Position numbers and translations under genes: made by a program
The notes under the pieces: model-generated
Seen by the model: the letters and a program-made list of their open reading frames with translations, nothing else
What the model was told of the DNA's origin: nothing
The model's database searches: none
NCBI GenBank assembly: GCA_024404275.1
Contig: JAKSQG010000048.1
Span: 1 to 10,579, forward strand
Origin: Clostridia bacterium
Lineage (GTDB): Bacteria; Bacillota; Clostridia; Christensenellales; Aristaeellaceae
Length of the DNA stretch: 10,579 nt
Reading direction: 5' to 3'
Shown here: positions 522 through 8,549 of the stretch, piece by piece
How the letters are laid out: every line of letters starts with the position of its first letter
Position numbering within the stretch: the first letter of the stretch is position 1

Positions 522-2189
522 ATGTCTGACTGGTGGAAAAAATCCGTTGTGTATCAGGTCTATCCCCGTTCCTTCTGCGACAGCAACGGCGATGGTGTGG
601 GCGACCTGCGCGGCATCATCGGCAAGCTGGATTACATCAAGACCCTGGGGGCGGATGTCATCTGGCTGAACCCCATCTATGCCTCGCCCAATGACGATAA
701 CGGCTCCGATATCAGCGATTATTACGCCATCATGCCCGCGTTTGGCACCATGGCGGAGCTTGATGAGCTGCTGCGAGAGGCGCCGGCCCGCGGACTGCAC
801 ATCCTGATGGACCTGGTGGTCAACCACACCTCCGACGAGCACCCCTGGTTTAAGGAAAGCCGCAAGAGCAAGGACAACCCCTACCGCGATTTTTATATCT
901 GGCGCGAGGGCAAAGGAACGCTGCCGCCCAACAACTGGTGGTCGTATTTCGGCGGCTCCGCGTGGCAGAAGTGCGATGAAACGGGCGAATACTACCTGCA
1001 TGTGTTCTCCCGCAAGCAGCCGGACCTCAACTGGGAAAACCCCGCCGTGCGGCAGGAAGTCTACCGCATCATGCGCTTCTGGCTGGATAAGGGCGTGGAT
1101 GGCTTCCGCATGGACGTGATCAACTACATCAGCAAGGTGCCCGGGCTGCCCGATGGCCCGCTGATGCCCAACGGTCTGGGGGACTTCGGTCCCGGCTGCA
1201 TCAACGGTCCGCGCATTCATGAGTTTTTGCAGGAAATGAACCGCGAGGTGCTGTCCCATTACGATGTGATGACCGTGGGGGAGATGCCCGGTGTGTCCCC
1301 CGAGCAAGCCTGCCGTTATGCCTCCGTGGAGGGCAACGAGCTGAACATGGTCTTCCAATTCCAGCATATGGAGCTGGACTTTGATGAGCGCTACAGCAAG
1401 TGGACGCTGCTGCCCACGCCCCTGGATGCGCTGCGCCGCAATCTGTCCACATGGCAGACGGCCCTGCATGGCAAAGGCTGGAACAGCCTGTACTGGAACA
1501 ACCACGACCAGCCCCGCATCGTTTCCCGCATGGGCGACGACAGCACCGATGCGCTGCGCACCGCCTCTGCCAAGATGCTGGGCACGCTGCTGCACATGAT
1601 GCAGGGCACGCCCTATGTGTACGAGGGCGAAGAGCTGGGCATGACCAACGTGCCGTTTACCTCGGTGGAGCAGTACCGCGACATCGACGCGCTGAACGGC
1701 TACCGCGAGCTGACCATCATCCACGGTCTGCCGCACGAGGAGGCCTTTGCCCGCGTGAACGGTCACAGCCGTGACAACGCGCGCACGCCCATGCAATGGG
1801 ACGATTCCCCCAACGCCGGTTTTACCGCGGGTGAGCCGTGGATCATGATGAACCCCAATTACACAACCATCCATGCCGCCGCGCAGATCAACGACCCGGA
1901 CAGCGTATTCTCATACTATCGGCAGCTGATCGGGCTGCGTAAGCAGTACGACATCATCACCGAGGGCGATTATGAGCAGCTGCTGGAAAACAGCAAGCAC
2001 TTTTTTGCCTATCGCCGTCACCGGAACGGTCAGACGCTGACCGTCCTCTGCGGCTTCAACCGCGAAACGATCGCGGATGATGAGGTCGCGCCGTACTGCA
2101 CCGGCACGCAGCTGCTTTGCAACTGCAGCGAGAGCAGCAGCGGCTGCTGGCAGCCTTTTGAGACCCGGGTGTATCTGTCACAGGAGTGA
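522..2189 (+). CDS. malL: GH13 (subfamily 31-like) alpha-glucosidase, oligo-1,6-glucosidase type
   Basis: 555 aa, colinear with Bacillus oligo-1,6-glucosidase as I remember it. GH13 conserved regions are present: VVNHTSDEH (I), GVDGFRMDVINYI (II, nucleophile Asp), MTVGEMPG (III, acid/base Glu), YWNNHDQPR (IV). Val directly after the nucleophile Asp is typical of alpha-1,6-specific members. GGGAGG at 505-510 precedes ATG 522; the stop is TGA. A trehalose-6-P hydrolase or sucrose-isomerase-type specificity cannot be excluded. Confidence 0.9.
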   Translation: MSDWWKKSVVYQVYPRSFCDSNGDGVGDLRGIIGKLDYIKTLGADVIWLNPIYASPNDDNGSDISDYYAIMPAFGTMAELDELLREAPARGLHILMDLVVNHTSDEHPWFKESRKSKDNPYRDFYIWREGKGTLPPNNWWSYFGGSAWQKCDETGEYYLHVFSRKQPDLNWENPAVRQEVYRIMRFWLDKGVDGFRMDVINYISKVPGLPDGPLMPNGLGDFGPGCINGPRIHEFLQEMNREVLSHYDVMTVGEMPGVSPEQACRYASVEGNELNMVFQFQHMELDFDERYSKWTLLPTPLDALRRNLSTWQTALHGKGWNSLYWNNHDQPRIVSRMGDDSTDALRTASAKMLGTLLHMMQGTPYVYEGEELGMTNVPFTSVEQYRDIDALNGYRELTIIHGLPHEEAFARVNGHSRDNARTPMQWDDSPNAGFTAGEPWIMMNPNYTTIHAAAQINDPDSVFSYYRQLIGLRKQYDIITEGDYEQLLENSKHFFAYRRHRNGQTLTVLCGFNRETIADDEVAPYCTGTQLLCNCSESSSGCWQPFETRVYLSQE

Positions 2190-2228
2190 CGCCGCTTTCG
2201 ACTTCCAGGCAAACTGCATTTCAAAGCC

Positions 2229-2279
2229 CCTTCGACCCGATTTCGCTTTTCGCAAAGGCAACGGATCGAAGGTTTTTTT
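2229..2279 (+). terminator. Rho-independent terminator after the glucosidase gene
   Basis: CCTTCGACCCG (2229-2239) pairs with CGGATCGAAGG (2262-2272) with one mismatch and a ~22-nt loop. A T7 run follows at 2273-2279, 40 nt past the stop codon. Confidence 0.6.
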
Positions 2280-2539
2280 ATTTGGCCATTGTCTCCCAGG
2301 GCTGATTCATAGATAAGAACGGCAAGCGGGTGACAGTACAGAGTTGTGTTTCAGCTGCTTTGATCAAACAAGCGCTCAATGGCAATGTCAGAGCCTTTGA
2401 GACCATTCGTGATATGGTGATACGAATCCATGTTCTGAATTATTGTAACTGTTAAAGGACAGTTCCTCTGAAGTCAACTGCGGAGGGGCTTTTTGATACA
2501 CTTATGGAGAGAGTACTTGATGAATGTGATAGGCAAATC

Positions 2540-2568
2540 TTGTAAAGCATATGTTCATTTGGTATAAT
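2540..2568 (+). promoter_or_regulatory. Sigma-70/SigA-type promoter with extended -10
   Basis: TTGTAA (2540-2545), an exact 17-nt spacer, then TATAAT (2563-2568) preceded by TGG, giving a TGnTATAAT extended -10. The predicted TSS is about 2575. This is the only good promoter upstream of the 2809 CDS. Confidence 0.6.
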
Positions 2569-2608
2569 ATACTTAACACTTCGAATCAAGAACCATTGGT
2601 ATTCAAAC

Positions 2609-2635
2609 AGAAGCCCCCGTCGGGGCTTTTCTCAC
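2609..2635 (+). terminator. Intrinsic-terminator-like hairpin inside the leader (attenuator or end of a ~60-nt sRNA)
   Basis: AAGCCCC (2611-2617), loop CGTC, GGGGCTT (2622-2628), then TTCTC. The stem can extend by A-U and G.U pairs. It lies only ~35 nt downstream of the predicted TSS and ~170 nt upstream of the CDS start. Confidence 0.5.
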
Positions 2636-2808
2636 ACACTGTGCAGTCGGTCGAACCGACGATTTGAATGAATACTGTAATCATAATGTCGGTCAAGTTT
2701 GAGAGAAGTGTAATTTTGTAGGGAACTCAAACAGTGTTGCCGATTGCAGGAACACGGTGTTCATTTGAGAGTAGTACTGTTGAAAGCGTTTTGTACCGAG
2801 GTGACGGC

Positions 2809-5568
2809 ATGGCAAACCAGTTTTTGACCAACTATACCGAAACTACTTTCCTTGAGAAGATCAAGGATAATCTGCGGCATTGCTCAGCATTTTCCTTTTC
2901 AGTCAGCTTTATCAAAAAGGCTGGCTTGATTTTATTGTTCAGAGATATCGAAGCAGCCGTAGAACGTGGCTGTCGCGGACGGATCATTACTTCGACATAT
3001 CAGAATTTTACTGACATTGAATCGTTGAAGAGCTTCTATACTTTGGCAGGACGCTGCAACAATTTTGAATGCCATCTCGATCATGAATGCTTCCATGATA
3101 ATGGTTACAGTACACTTGGTTATCATTCAAAAGGTTATCTATTTGAACTTGATGATTGCTGTGAACTGATTGTCGGCTCATCCAATATCACGCGTTATGC
3201 GCTGCTCAAAAATATAGAATGGGACGTTGTCGTTCGTGAGTCCAAGGGCAGCGAAGCATATGAGCAGGCAATGGCAGAATTCAATAGCCGTTGGTCAGCA
3301 ACACATCCGCTAAACAGCGAGATCATCAATCTGTATGCTAACAAACTGAATTTTGCCATTGAACGCTGGGATATGGATTACGACTTTTCGCAGGCAAATA
3401 TCAAACCCAATTTCATGCAGCGCAAAGCATTGAAAGAACTGAATCGTTATCGTGCTGTCGGAACAAACCGTGCGCTTGTTGTTGCTGCCGCCGGTTCCGG
3501 GAAAACATATCTTGCGGCATTCGATGCATTGAATTTCAATCCAAAGAGACTTCTATACATTGTGCATGAAGGCTCCATTTTGAAGAAATCATTGGAAACT
3601 TTTCAGGATGTGTTTGGCAACCAAGTGACCTATGGCATATACAGTGGCACCAGCAAAGAATCAGATGCGGATTTTGTGTTTGCAACAAACATTACAATGA
3701 GCAATACGCTGGATCTGTTCCGGAAAGATGAGTTCGACTACATCATCATCGATGAATGTCATCATGCAACAGCTGAGACTTATCGTAAGATCATCGCATA
3801 TTTCGAACCGGAATTTCTTCTCGGCTTGACTGCGACACCTGAACGTATGGATAATCAGGATGTCTTTGAACTATTTGAGCAGAATGTGCCGTATGAGCTT
3901 CGACTGCGTGATGCAATCATTAACGATATTGTTGTGCCCTTCAAATATTATGGCATCCGTGACAAACTGGTCGACTATGGCCTGGGCGCAAATGAAGAAC
4001 GCCGTATGATTGCTCAAATGGCAAATGACGATCATTGTGATTTTATCGCAGAGCAGATCGAGGCTCATCGCGGTCAAGGAAAACTGAAAGCCCTTGCTTT
4101 CTGTCGTAATGTTACACATGCCCGCATGATGTGTGAATCAATGGGCGAGCATTACCACACTGCATATCTGACGGGGCGGAATGACATTGGTGAACGCATT
4201 CGAGCTTACAATGATCTGCAGAGCGATGCAGCAGATTTGGAGATTCTGTTCACAGTTGATATTCTGAATGAAGGTGTCGATATTCCCGGTGTCAACATGG
4301 TGCTATTCCTACGTCCAACGGAATCCTCGACGATCTTCATTCAGCAACTCGGACGCGGGTTGCGTAAATTCACCAACAAACAGTTTGTCACTGTATTGGA
4401 CTTTATCGGTAACAGCTATAAGCGCAGTGTGCAGATTGCGTTTGCGCTTTCCTCCCTTGCCGAAAACTTTGTCGTAGAAAAGCGCCTCATGGCTTCATTG
4501 GTCCGTGATGACTTTTCTGCTTTGGCATTACAGCAATATGGCGTTGAGATTCATATTGATGATCTTAGCAAAGAAGAAATCCTGGAGTTTATAGACAAAG
4601 AAAACTTCAATGCCATCAAGTATCTGAAACAGGACTATTTCAATTTCAAAAAATATATCAACGCTGAGTTTTGGCCAAAGCATATAGATTATCTGAATAA
4701 CGATTGTGCTCCGGACCTGATTCGGTTCATGAGCGTGAAAACAGCAGGAAAGAAACACTTCTCCTATTACAATTTCCTTCGGGCAATCGGAGAAGAAAAC
4801 TTACCCGTATTCAGTGAAGAACAAATCAGTTTTATCAATTATCTGTCAAGCCTCCTGCCTTTAGTCCGGCCACATGAATATATGATTGTAAAAGAACTGA
4901 TGAAAGCATCAATGTCTGTTGATGAAATGTCTGCATTGTTATGTCAGCAGATTCCAGGATATCAATTTGTTGAATTACGTCATGCACTTGAGTTTTTGAA
5001 ATACATCCATCATGATGGTGATGTTCTGTCGCTCGAGACAGAGATGGATGATCAGCTACGTGAGTATCTGGATGATTTGCTTACGTATGGCCTCACTCGC
5101 TACACCACTGACTACGGCGAAGAGACAGGATTCAAACTTTGGCAGAATTACCGTATGGATCAGGTTCAGATGAAGTTGCTAAAGAATCCAGGATACACAG
5201 CGGTCGGTACATATTATTATGACGATGTAGTTGTCATTTTCGCATCACTGAAAAAAGATCTTGATGCAGAGAACCGATTGAACTATAAAGACAAATTCTT
5301 GCAGCCTAATCTCTTTCAGTGGGAATCGAGAAATAATCTTCCAGCCGAAGATCTATCCAAACTGAACAGCAGCCGCTTTGCATATGTCTTTATTCGTAAG
5401 GTATCGGATGAGAATGGCATAACGTTGCCGTTCACCTATGTGGGCAAAGGTGTATTAGGCAATTGCCGAGCAACAGAAAATGGTAATAGAACGTATTTGT
5501 TCGACATCGAAATGGATAATGCACTTCCAAATTACTTGCAGTACGACTTTGGATTGACGAAAGAGTGA
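2809..5568 (+). CDS. SauUSI-family type IV (modification-dependent) restriction endonuclease candidate: PLD/HKD nuclease + SF2 DExH helicase/ATPase + C-terminal DUF3427
   Basis: I place the start at ATG 2809 (GAGGTG at 2798-2803, 5-nt spacer), not the ORF-track GTG at 2734. Single HKD-type motif HSKGYLF...VGSSNIT at 3124-3192. Walker A AAAGSGKT at 3484-3507. Motif II DECH at 3751-3762. Motif III TATP at 3829-3840. Motifs V/VI ...LNEGVDIPGV... and QQLGRGLR at 4342-4365. The C-terminal ~145 aa (about 5130-5565: WQNYRMDQV...FASLKKD...YKDKFLQPNLFQWESRN...YVFIRK...FTYVG) fits my memory of the DUF3427 pattern. Size (919 aa) and domain order match the published description of SauUSI. Stop is TGA. 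Confidence 0.75.
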   Translation: MANQFLTNYTETTFLEKIKDNLRHCSAFSFSVSFIKKAGLILLFRDIEAAVERGCRGRIITSTYQNFTDIESLKSFYTLAGRCNNFECHLDHECFHDNGYSTLGYHSKGYLFELDDCCELIVGSSNITRYALLKNIEWDVVVRESKGSEAYEQAMAEFNSRWSATHPLNSEIINLYANKLNFAIERWDMDYDFSQANIKPNFMQRKALKELNRYRAVGTNRALVVAAAGSGKTYLAAFDALNFNPKRLLYIVHEGSILKKSLETFQDVFGNQVTYGIYSGTSKESDADFVFATNITMSNTLDLFRKDEFDYIIIDECHHATAETYRKIIAYFEPEFLLGLTATPERMDNQDVFELFEQNVPYELRLRDAIINDIVVPFKYYGIRDKLVDYGLGANEERRMIAQMANDDHCDFIAEQIEAHRGQGKLKALAFCRNVTHARMMCESMGEHYHTAYLTGRNDIGERIRAYNDLQSDAADLEILFTVDILNEGVDIPGVNMVLFLRPTESSTIFIQQLGRGLRKFTNKQFVTVLDFIGNSYKRSVQIAFALSSLAENFVVEKRLMASLVRDDFSALALQQYGVEIHIDDLSKEEILEFIDKENFNAIKYLKQDYFNFKKYINAEFWPKHIDYLNNDCAPDLIRFMSVKTAGKKHFSYYNFLRAIGEENLPVFSEEQISFINYLSSLLPLVRPHEYMIVKELMKASMSVDEMSALLCQQIPGYQFVELRHALEFLKYIHHDGDVLSLETEMDDQLREYLDDLLTYGLTRYTTDYGEETGFKLWQNYRMDQVQMKLLKNPGYTAVGTYYYDDVVVIFASLKKDLDAENRLNYKDKFLQPNLFQWESRNNLPAEDLSKLNSSRFAYVFIRKVSDENGITLPFTYVGKGVLGNCRATENGNRTYLFDIEMDNALPNYLQYDFGLTKE

Positions 5569-5649
5569 TCTCACAGCACCTATGTGAAAAAGCAATGTCT
5601 AAGTTAAAATCCAAGCTTTTATCATTTTGAAAAACTAAATATTGAAAAA

Positions 5650-5678
5650 GGCCACCGGAGCGATTCGATGGCTTTTTT
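5650..5678 (+). terminator. Rho-independent terminator of the restriction-enzyme gene
   Basis: GGCCACCGGA (5650-5659), loop GCGA, TTCGATGGCT (5664-5673). This is a 10-bp stem with one mismatch and two G.U pairs, followed by a T-run to 5678. Confidence 0.65.
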
Positions 5679-5785
5679 ATGGAGGTGCAATATGATATGC
5701 AAATTCGTGTGCACTACTGGGAAAAATGCTGCGGAAAACCCACGATTTTCCATCATTCACCGGTGATGTTTTTCGGAAAATCCCG

Positions 5786-5831
5786 ATAAAATAAAGGAAA
5801 GTCAGCGATTCTCCGGAATTGCTGACTTTCC
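5786..5831 (-). terminator. Rho-independent terminator of the tRNA gene
   Basis: On the minus strand, GGAAAGTCAGCAATTC / GAATCGCTGACTTTCC (plus-strand 5796-5831) forms a 16-bp stem with one G.U pair and a 4-nt loop. It starts 4 nt after the tRNA CCA end and is followed by TTTATTTTATC. Confidence 0.75.
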
Positions 5832-5835
5832 TTGT

Positions 5836-5911
5836 TGGCAGCGCGTATGGGGCTCGAACCCATGTTCGCGATTTTAGAGACCGCTGTCCTGGACCACTAG
5901 ACGAACGCGCC
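5836..5911 (-). tRNA. tRNA with anticodon CUA (amber suppressor type, tRNA-Sup-CTA); tRNA-Glu-like body; encoded CCA
   Basis: The minus-strand 76-mer folds by hand as GGCGCGU-UC-GUCU-AGUGGUCC-AGGAC-A-GCGGU-CUCUAAA-AUCGC-GAAC-AUGGG-UUCGAGC-CCCAU-ACGCGCU-G-CCA. The acceptor stem has 7 pairs (G1.U72 wobble, then 6 Watson-Crick). The anticodon stem has 5 pairs (one G.U) and the T stem has 5 pairs. U8, A14, GG in the D loop, U33, G53, TTC, A58 and C61 are all present. The 7-nt anticodon loop CUCUAAA puts CUA at positions 34-36 (plus-strand TAG at 5875-5877). Confidence 0.85.
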
Positions 5912-6021
5912 ATACACGTTTTTATATTTGACACGGAACGGGTTTTTCCTGCCGGGGCGGGCAGATTTCTTTTATTTTGTACTCTTTTGTTCCGTGCTCT
6001 CCGATGAAAACGCTTCTGCCG

Positions 6022-6086: not shown

Positions 6087-6833
6087 ATGGCAAAGCATTA
6101 TCGCCGCAAGCCGAAGTATGTAAAACCCAAGGAGCGCACCTTTGTTGAATGGTGGAACGATCAGACCGAGCGCACCCGCCGCACCCTGATGATTACCGGC
6201 ATCGCCGTGCTGGCTGTCATCGTGCTGCTGATCGTTGGCTACTATGGTTTCTATAATGACGGTTCCCTGGTCGTCCGCAACGGCGAAGTGGTGGGCAAGC
6301 AGGATAATTGGCTCATCGCCGAGCGCACCCCGGGCAAGAACAGCAAGTATTATCATCTGGCCGATGTTGAGGCGATCGAAGGCTTCAAATACAACGGACC
6401 GCTGACCACCAGCATCAACGGCGCCAACATCAAGACCGATTTCACCTTCATCCCCGAGGATGAAAACAGCCCCATCGATATGATCTATGTCTCCCCCGTG
6501 GCGGCCCGCAGCCCCAAGGAGATGGCTGAATACGTTCGTCCCACCATGCTGAACTACGCCGGCGAAAACGGCACCGTTTCCGAGATCGAAAGCTTCAATG
6601 CTCCCAGCGGCACCGGTTACTGGTTCAACTACGCCTACAGCAACACCGACACCGAGACGGGCGTTGTCAAGTATTATCAGAGCGCGGTCATGTATGTGCC
6701 CTGCCGCTACAATAACAGCAGCGTGCTGATCTCCATCAACGTGGTCGGCGACAGCGAGGAAGTGTATATGCCCACCGAAGAACTGTTCAATCTGGGTATG
6801 AAGCAGATCAACGCCATCACCATCATCAAGTAA
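6087..6833 (+). CDS. Single-pass membrane-anchored protein of unknown function (basic N-terminal tail, one TM helix, ~190-aa extracytoplasmic domain)
   Basis: Start chosen at MAKHYRRKPKY (ATG 6087), downstream of the promoter at 6022-6050. The ORF-track start at 5928 would run across the tRNA promoter region with atypical codon use. The TM segment is LMITGIAVLAVIVLLIVGYYGF. Host-like GC and codon bias; TAA stop followed by a terminator. I recognise no family. Confidence 0.7.
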   Translation: MAKHYRRKPKYVKPKERTFVEWWNDQTERTRRTLMITGIAVLAVIVLLIVGYYGFYNDGSLVVRNGEVVGKQDNWLIAERTPGKNSKYYHLADVEAIEGFKYNGPLTTSINGANIKTDFTFIPEDENSPIDMIYVSPVAARSPKEMAEYVRPTMLNYAGENGTVSEIESFNAPSGTGYWFNYAYSNTDTETGVVKYYQSAVMYVPCRYNNSSVLISINVVGDSEEVYMPTEELFNLGMKQINAITIIK

Positions 6834-7745: not shown

Positions 7746-8549
7746 TCAGGTGTTCAACAACATGCGGTCGTTGTCCAGCGCACGGCCGGCATTTTCACGG
7801 AAGCGCTCCAGCAGGTCCTCCACCGTCATGCGGGCCCGTTCTTCGCCGCGGACATCCAGAATGATATGCCCGTTGTGCATCATCAGCGTACGCGTGCCCA
7901 GCTCCAGCGCGCTTTGCATGTTGTGAGTGATCATCATGCAGGTCAGGTTGTTTTCCTCCACCACCTGACGGGTGATGTTCAGCACCTTTTCGGCGGTGCC
8001 GGGGTCGAGGGCAGCGGTGTGCTCATCCAGCAGCAAAAGCTTTGGCGGGTTGAAGGTGGCCATCAGCAGCGTGAGCGCCTGCCTCTGACCGCCGCTGAGC
8101 AGACCGACAGGCTGCTTCATGCGCTTTTCCAGCCCCATATCCAGCAGCATCAGGCGCTGTTTGAACTCTTCCTTGTCCGCGCGGCTCACGCTGCTCAGCC
8201 AGCCGCCGCGTCCTGCCGCCAGCGCCATGTTTTCCTCAATGGTCATGCCGGGGGCGGAGCCGCGCATGGGATCCTGAAACAGGCGGCCGATCGTTCTGGA
8301 GCGTTGATGGTCGGGTATATAGGTGATGTCCCTGCCGTCCAGCTCAATGCGTCCCTTGTCCACATAGAAGCTGCCGCAGATGGCGTTGAACAGCGTCGAT
8401 TTTCCCGCGCCGTTCGCGCCGATGATGGTAATGAATTCGCCTTTGTTCACTTCGAGGTCCAGCCCGTCAAACACCTGCTTGGCATTGACGGTGCCGGGGT
8501 TGAAGGTCTTGCAGACGCCCTTCAAGGACAGGATGGGATGCTCAGCCAT
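7746..8549 (-). CDS. ABC transporter ATP-binding protein (COG1101-type)
   Basis: Walker A GANGAGKST, signature LSGGQRQ, Walker B LLLLDEHTAALD, H-loop ITHN. GGGAGGA lies 7 nt upstream of ATG 8549. The start overlaps the permease stop as ATGGCTGA, indicating translational coupling. TGA stop. Confidence 0.9.
   Translation of the reverse strand: MAEHPILSLKGVCKTFNPGTVNAKQVFDGLDLEVNKGEFITIIGANGAGKSTLFNAICGSFYVDKGRIELDGRDITYIPDHQRSRTIGRLFQDPMRGSAPGMTIEENMALAAGRGGWLSSVSRADKEEFKQRLMLLDMGLEKRMKQPVGLLSGGQRQALTLLMATFNPPKLLLLDEHTAALDPGTAEKVLNITRQVVEENNLTCMMITHNMQSALELGTRTLMMHNGHIILDVRGEERARMTVEDLLERFRENAGRALDNDRMLLNT

Follow-up and report, generated by a model that had tools for sequence, protein, structure and literature searches.

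A chromosomal CUA-anticodon tRNA of tRNA-Glu type in a narrow lineage of Clostridia and the probable decoding of UAG as glutamate

A 10,579-nt contig of a Clostridia bacterium (JAKSQG010000048.1, assembly GCA_024404275.1; the whole stretch is referred to as the window) carries a tRNA gene whose anticodon, CUA, pairs with the stop codon UAG. Such a gene raises three questions: what type of tRNA it encodes, whether it belongs to the host chromosome, and whether UAG is read as an amino acid in host genes and, if so, as which one. The gene and the signals around it are as follows.

5782–5833, minus strand: intrinsic terminator of the tRNA, composed of a hairpin (5794–5833) and the U-rich tail UUAUUUUAU; identified from the inverted repeat and the folding energy.
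5836–5911, minus strand: tRNA gene of 76 nt with anticodon CUA, a Glu-type scaffold, and an encoded CCA; supported by ARAGORN, Rfam RF00005, the minimum-free-energy cloverleaf, and 76/76 identity in two other assemblies (L007 and L002, described below).
5875–5877, minus strand: anticodon CUA (TAG on the plus strand) within the loop CUCUAAA; from ARAGORN and the fold.
5912–5948, minus strand: putative promoter region, not established as such, that lies upstream of the tRNA and contains the conserved motif TTCCGTGTC together with a TATAAA block rich in A/T; from conserved blocks in an alignment of the window, L006, L007, and L002.
5949–5964, plus strand: hairpin resembling a terminator, in the interval that separates the tRNA from the divergent hypothetical gene; from a terminator scan, and conserved in L002.

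ARAGORN detected a single tRNA in the window, at 5836–5911 on the minus strand, with the anticodon cta. The Rfam tRNA model RF00005 aligned with 5839–5911 of the same strand from end to end (model positions 1–71 of 71), with a score of 55.5 bits against a gathering score of 29 (E = 5e-10). The minimum-free-energy fold of the 76-nt RNA, GGCGCGUUCGUCUAGUGGUCCAGGACAGCGGUCUCUAAAAUCGCGAACAUGGGUUCGAGCCCCAUACGCGCUGCCA, is a cloverleaf composed of a 7-bp acceptor stem that starts with G1·U72, a 4-bp D stem, a 5-bp anticodon stem, and a 5-bp T stem. The D loop has 9 nt and contains GG, the anticodon loop is the 7-nt CUCUAAA, and the T loop is UUCGAGC; two bases separate the acceptor and D stems, the variable region is the 4-nt GAAC, and G73 precedes the encoded CCA. 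Directly 3′ of the CCA lies the terminator hairpin, with 18-nt arms and followed by the U-rich tail. Its folding energy was −23.5 kcal/mol (z = −4.2), and none of 200 shuffled sequences folded equally well. A preliminary description of this DNA, made from the letters alone, had proposed a canonical 76-nt cloverleaf with CCA, a CUA anticodon at plus-strand positions 5875–5877, and a strong dedicated terminator; the results agree with it on each of these points and add the strand of the gene, which it had not stated and which is the minus strand. No match to the sigma-70 consensus was obtained directly upstream of the tRNA in the promoter scan. The hairpin at 5949–5964 on the plus strand is GC-rich and precedes a T run. 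L002 has it as well, and its appearance is that of a terminator that would keep antisense transcription from crossing the tRNA.

The protein-coding genes that define the surroundings of the tRNA are the following.

522–2189, plus strand: GH13 alpha-glucosidase (annotation of the window).
2809–5568, plus strand: 919-aa PLD-nuclease/helicase/DUF3427 protein, matching the PADLOC model mREase_IV (type IV restriction) with 2e-104.
6087–6833, plus strand: hypothetical membrane protein, divergent from the tRNA (annotation of the window).
7746–8549, minus strand: ABC-transporter ATPase (annotation of the window), with an ortholog at 2493–3296 of L026.

Lipoprotein and ABC transporter genes are also present in the window. 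Exact matches to its proteins assign the window to NCBI assembly GCA_024500545.1. The restriction-type gene of 919 aa is carried by a stretch of 42% GC in a background of approximately 60% GC. An empty site was found in L007, an independent assembly of the window's species from run SRR18398425, in which the terminator of the alpha-glucosidase gene joins directly to window position ~5697 and the tRNA is retained. Positions 2315–5696 of the window thus constitute a 3.4-kb low-GC insertion between the alpha-glucosidase gene and the tRNA, and, because the empty site keeps the tRNA, this insertion is a separate event and the tRNA lies on the conserved backbone. The possibility that the tRNA is part of the low-GC island was ruled out on the same ground, and the gene can be called chromosomal, as had been proposed. 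The dinucleotide AT is common to both junctions of the insertion, and no integrase is present.

We compared the tRNA with its counterparts in L007 and in L002 (JAZRWA010000050.1, a metagenome-assembled genome (MAG) labelled Clostridia bacterium that belongs to another species). Both tRNAs were identical to that of the window at 76 of 76 positions, CUA included. Since an assembly made independently and a MAG from a different species both contain these 76 nt, the CUA is not an assembly error; a sense anticodon at 5875–5877, by which the preliminary description would have been refuted, appeared in neither. Identity between L002 and the window was 70% in the terminator region, 60% upstream, and 42% further downstream, and orthologous proteins of the two species are approximately 72% identical. 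Despite the sequence identity of 70%, the terminator hairpin survives in L002 through paired (compensatory) changes. The upstream neighbor of the tRNA is the same hypothetical gene in both species, and the downstream neighbors differ. Covariation analysis within the tRNA was not possible because all copies are identical.

The distribution of the tRNA was examined in one genome per species using a loose pattern that required a D arm of Glu type and the loop CUCUAA but left the anticodon stem free. Among 185,579 species genomes, this pattern gave one true relative, L002. The only other match of the scan, at 322–416 on the plus strand of the archaeal contig L003, is called a 95-nt "tRNA-Phe(aaa)" by ARAGORN; it is probably an intron-containing tRNA that was misread and is unrelated to the tRNA of the window. 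The pattern search of JGI metagenomes gave only an unrelated CUA tRNA of actinobacterial type and a fragment. The former, a different Glu-type CUA tRNA of actinobacterial appearance, lies at 1884–1959 on the minus strand of the 2-kb contig Ga0194116_10087771 (L004), and the latter, a truncated copy of an actinobacterial-looking Glu-type CUA tRNA, lies at 210–239 on the minus strand of Ga0214919_10097129 (L005). Homologs of the hypothetical gene at approximately 40% identity were found in other contexts, with no tRNA nearby. At the level of sequence comparison, these data establish a real, vertically inherited tRNA that is subject to strong purifying selection and confined to a very narrow lineage.

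The same data bear on the suggestion that the tRNA originated in TAG-recoded phages or another mobile element, or works on their behalf, and has no role in host expression. The tRNA has as neighbors a region that varies and a restriction-type gene gained by horizontal transfer, and recoding of TAG is known from phages and prophages of gut Firmicutes. However, neither the loose Glu-type/CUA pattern nor the exact anticodon arm matched anything in 2.9 million viral contigs (IMG/VR), and no phage genes or pyl genes were found in the window, which contains sugar-hydrolase and ABC-transporter genes instead. Moreover, the strain with the empty site keeps the tRNA, its upstream neighbor is the same in two species, and the in-frame TAG codons described below are located in host genes. 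We consider a phage or mobile-element role very improbable, and the link to TAG-recoded phages that was among the meanings offered in the preliminary description found no support.

To classify the tRNA, we compared its sequence and structural elements with those of known tRNAs. It was 70% identical to E. coli tRNA-Glu(UUC) and 52–53% identical to E. coli tRNA-Gln (glnV and glnU). Compared with the E. coli tRNA-Gln, its D loop is 2 nt longer and its variable loop is 1 nt shorter, whereas the D-loop length and the variable loop match those of tRNA-Glu. The features shared with the tRNA-Gln scaffold are limited to G73, G10, U35, and G2-C71, and the characteristics of the tRNA-Gln/supE scaffold (U1-A72, G2-C71, and G3-C70, a short D loop, and a 5-nt variable loop) were not met as a set. 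In the D arm, UCGUCUAGUGGUCCAGGACA, and in GAAC, the variable loop, the positions correspond one to one to those of three tRNA-Glu genes, of which E. coli gltU is one. Among 50,697 phage records, neither an identical tRNA nor a match with a CUA anticodon was found; the nearest matches were only two, both of them tRNA-Glu genes (CUC/UUC) with 76–80% identity. One of the two, located on an unverified faecal scaffold, is a tRNA-Glu(CUC) whose D arm is identical to that of the tRNA of the window.

The identity rules for GluRS, which were reportedly worked out in E. coli by Sekine and coworkers in 1996, concern the augmented D helix, the acceptor pairs, and the anticodon. The augmented D helix is present in the tRNA of the window (U11-A24, and U13·G22 with A46, and no residue 47), so this identity criterion is met. 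The remainder of the E. coli set (U34/U35/C36/A37, G1-C72, and U2-A71) is not met, since the tRNA has C34 U35 A36 A37, G1·U72, and G2-C71. Non-discriminating GluRS enzymes are relaxed at position 36, which we regard as a lead only. The differences from an ordinary tRNA-Glu comprise C36A, C38A (loop CUCUAAA versus CUYUCAC), and G1·U72/G2-C71 in place of G1-C72/U2-A71. Given C36A, C38A, and the altered acceptor end, the gene is a remodelled derivative of tRNA-Glu and not a one-step mutant. The Glu-like scaffold described previously is therefore borne out by the Glu-type D arm, the 4-nt variable loop, and the identity values, whereas the single C36-to-A step from Glu(CUC) that had been suggested does not account for C38A or for the acceptor end. 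As for C38A, Yarus is said to have described A37-A38 after a CUA anticodon as the best context for amber suppression; this, too, is a lead only. Judged by its sequence and predicted structure, the tRNA is of Glu type by origin and scaffold, yet it is not an ordinary tRNA-Glu.

ARAGORN labels the gene "tRNA-Pyl", which is the default name given by the program to any CTA anticodon. The idea of a pyrrolysine tRNA rests only on this label and on the CUA anticodon itself. The characteristics of tRNA-Pyl (a 6-bp anticodon stem, a 3-nt variable loop, a small D loop without G18G19, a one-base linker, and no T-psi-C) were not met: the tRNA has a 9-nt D loop with GG, a two-base linker, a 5-bp anticodon stem, a 4-nt variable loop, and UUCGAGC. 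In addition, no pyl genes are located nearby, and the TAG sites described below align with Glu and not with Lys or with the Pyl sites of methyltransferases. A tRNA-Pyl is thus already refuted by the structure and is hardly credible, and tRNA-Sec was also ruled out on structure. In the preliminary description, the normal D loop, linker, anticodon stem, and variable and T loops had led to the exclusion of tRNA-Pyl, and the anticodon and the lack of a long arm to that of tRNA-Sec.

We then examined genes of the lineage for in-frame TAG codons. In L002, the start of a histidine kinase gene (1665–3524) is 840 nt away from the tRNA, with a response-regulator gene in between. The reading frame of the kinase contains stop codons at codons 265, 366, and 477, all three of which are TAG; the true stop is TAA, there is no frameshift, and the part past the third TAG encodes a HATPase_c domain that is complete (E = 2e-28). 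The closest ortholog, P0014, is 72% identical, originates from the window's own assembly, and has Glu at both of the TAG sites that it covers. Gln was found at the second TAG site in two distant homologs. The identity between the kinase and P0014 is 67% in the first part of the gene, then 75%, and then 86%. This rise speaks against a true stop, because decay past a true stop would give the opposite trend.

A further in-frame TAG was observed in the window's own species. L001, which belongs to this species and has an identical ABC ATPase, contains a gene of 361 aa (132–1217) with an in-frame TAG at codon 281. The allele with TAG at this codon was present in several independent ENA, Logan, and NCBI assemblies (L001, L019, and an NCBI MAG). 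More than 50 homologs of the gene are single proteins of approximately 360 aa that span both halves. In the alignment column of codon 281, 13 of 17 homologs have Glu, an ortholog with 72% identity has GAG at the site at the DNA level, and two 361-aa members of the same 90% cluster from near-identical strains (P0219 and P0220) also have Glu. The dN/dS values calculated against the ortholog were 0.14 downstream and 0.20 upstream of the TAG. Two strains with the TAG allele differ at 18 sites, and the differences downstream of the TAG (4 of 4) are synonymous third-position changes. Constraint downstream of the TAG is thus observed, as are in-frame TAG codons at Glu positions in intact genes. In the annotation of the NCBI Clostridia MAG, the gene appears as two separate "hypothetical proteins", MCQ2453950.1 and MCQ2453949.1 (P0212 and P0211).

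In total, the evidence consists of four in-frame TAG codons in two otherwise intact genes, all outside the window, which is a small sample. All three TAG sites for which a close ortholog is available align with Glu, the residue predicted by the tRNA scaffold. None of the seven genes of the window has an in-frame TAG, and none ends in TAG. In the lineage, none of approximately 21 genes ends in TAG; this count is uninformative, since only 1 of 42 genes ends in TAG in related Clostridia with 52–60% GC (L008, L014, and L028). The rarity of TAG stops is possibly a precondition for codon capture.

An in-frame stop codon of another kind was found in the ABC ATPase gene (2493–3296) of one strain, L026 (ERZ27247179), in which CAA is changed to TAA at codon 212. 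TAA cannot be read by a CUA tRNA, so this codon reflects either a nonsense mutation of recent date or a mistake in assembly, and it indicates that these assemblies are not free of ordinary nonsense changes or errors. In one relative, gyrB is called as two overlapping ORFs of 140 aa and 522 aa (L010, 4390–6367, minus strand), which looks like a frameshift or an assembly error and not a stop codon.

The TAA of L026 agrees with the explanation that the tRNA suppresses only weakly or not at all, or is a relic of evolution, and that the TAG codons are nonsense mutations, pseudogenes, or low-level read-through unrelated to it. Codon 281 is polymorphic between TAG and Glu within the species and could be a young nonsense allele whose downstream part has not yet decayed. 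Among the ways in which nonsense codons arise, a change from GAG to TAG is one of the most common, and no promoter consensus was found upstream of the tRNA. Furthermore, in-frame stops under constraint, with dN/dS below 1, have been noted widely in prokaryotes (PMC7918605). This explanation does not readily accommodate the 100% conservation of the tRNA and its anticodon across species in which the flanks have fallen to 42–70% identity, or a frameshift-free kinase gene whose three stops are all TAG and whose conservation rises downstream. The exclusively synonymous differences between strains past the TAG, the dN/dS of 0.14, and the alignment of three of three TAG sites with Glu, as the scaffold predicts, also count against it. 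We regard it as unlikely, though serious enough to be kept in mind.

The preliminary description had left Glu and Gln open as the inserted residue. Reading of UAG as glutamine, for which TAG-recoded phages and E. coli supE are precedents, would require charging by GlnRS, or by a non-discriminating GluRS followed by GatCAB. The elements G73, G10, U35, G2-C71, and the weak G1·U72 pair are compatible with this, as are the Gln of TAG-recoded phages and that of the two distant kinase homologs at the second TAG site. Normanly and Kleina reportedly observed in 1990 that amber suppressors built from tRNA-Glu insert mostly Gln in E. coli. However, Gln is absent from the TAG sites of the three close orthologs, where Glu is found throughout, in one case as GAG at the DNA level. 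TAG codons that specify Gln would mostly arise from CAG, and the D loop and the 4-nt variable loop are of Glu type. Glutamine is therefore distinctly unlikely, and, of the two residues proposed, the comparative data support Glu.

The reading that we prefer is that UAG is decoded as glutamate in this small clade, through either efficient suppression or full reassignment; we consider it probable, with expression and charging of the tRNA being inferred. Suppression or reassignment of UAG in the organism itself, one of the meanings offered in the preliminary description, is thus favored on account of the in-frame TAG codons at Glu positions in intact genes. In the proposed mechanism, the chromosomal and vertically inherited derivative of tRNA-Glu, whose CUA is predicted to pair with UAG, would be expressed from its own unit and, most likely, receive glutamate from the host GluRS, which would recognize its augmented D helix of Glu type. 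It would then insert Glu at UAG, which would become, at least in part, a rare sense codon for Glu. Changes from GAG to TAG in host genes would be tolerated, since they would be read through and would be effectively synonymous. That the tRNA of the window does the decoding, and that the residue is Glu, are inferences. Whether decoding is complete, with RF1 lost, or competes with termination is likewise a matter of inference.

The stronger form of this reading is that the clade has reassigned UAG to Glu genome-wide by means of a dedicated tRNA derived from tRNA-Glu, with RF1 lost or disabled. No data on RF1 are available, and we put this form forward only tentatively, as a possibility somewhat short of even. 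It would represent an early stage, in which TAG may still be very rare and may interchange with GAG between strains. Several observations stand against glutamate decoding in either form: the small sample, the TAA in L026, the absence of a sigma-70 promoter, and the lack of the E. coli GluRS elements G1-C72/U2-A71 and C36.

If UAG is decoded as glutamate, a host-encoded decoder would extend the natural genetic codes by a new one or supply an ambiguous intermediate that occurs in nature. The genome-wide form, if true, would be a new bacterial code and, among bacteria, the first in which UAG is assigned to a standard amino acid. With both TAG and GAG alleles among the strains, the question of codon capture versus ambiguous intermediate would become directly testable. 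The reading would also explain genes split by standard-code annotation, such as MCQ2453950.1 and MCQ2453949.1. Compatibility with phages and plasmids would be affected because incoming genes with TAG as their stop would gain an extension, and a natural amber-decoding tRNA/GluRS pair would be on offer for genetic-code engineering. Neither a chromosomal tRNA-Glu(CUA) in a bacterium nor a bacterial UAG read as Glu turned up in our literature search, which is not proof of novelty.

Related systems have been described for both UAG and UGA; for UAG, those in the literature consulted are limited to phages, users of Pyl, and some eukaryotes. The TAG-recoded phages (code 15: crAss-like, Lak, Garnet, and others) likewise use a dedicated CUA tRNA that reads in-frame TAG; in these phages, too, rare TAG stops appear to come first, and standard-code calling splits the genes. 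According to the literature on these phages, TAG is recoded only to Gln. Both the tRNA and the recoded genes are phage-borne in code 15, whereas the present case involves a chromosomal tRNA, host genes, and Glu as both scaffold and aligned residue. The bacterial stop-codon reassignments reported in the genetic-code screening literature all concern UGA and are accompanied by RF2 loss. In these cases (code 4, to Trp; code 25, to Gly), the cognate tRNA is also derived from an ordinary tRNA. The codon and release factor differ, being UGA and RF2 in codes 4 and 25 and UAG and RF1 in the lineage of the window, for which there are no data on RF1 loss.

Decoding of UAG as pyrrolysine in bacteria and archaea likewise employs a CUA tRNA and prokaryotic host genes, and a genome-wide reassignment of this kind is reported for some archaea (Kivenson 2025, cited at second hand). 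tRNA-Pyl is compact and needs pylS and pylBCD, whereas the tRNA of the window is canonical and Glu-like and would, by inference, carry a standard amino acid. The trypanosomatid Blastocrithidia nonstop reads UAR as Glu and likewise decodes UAG as glutamate with cognate tRNA-Glu derivatives (PMC12153298). That system is a eukaryotic nuclear code with all three stops reassigned and changes in eRF1, whereas the present case concerns a bacterium and UAG only. Finally, in the amber suppressors of E. coli (supE/glnV44 and synthetic tRNA-Glu(CUA)), the anticodon is changed to CUA and the tRNA competes with RF1. These laboratory suppressors are single-step mutants, whereas the tRNA of the window is a separate gene that is fixed across two species and has A37 A38 and an altered acceptor end.
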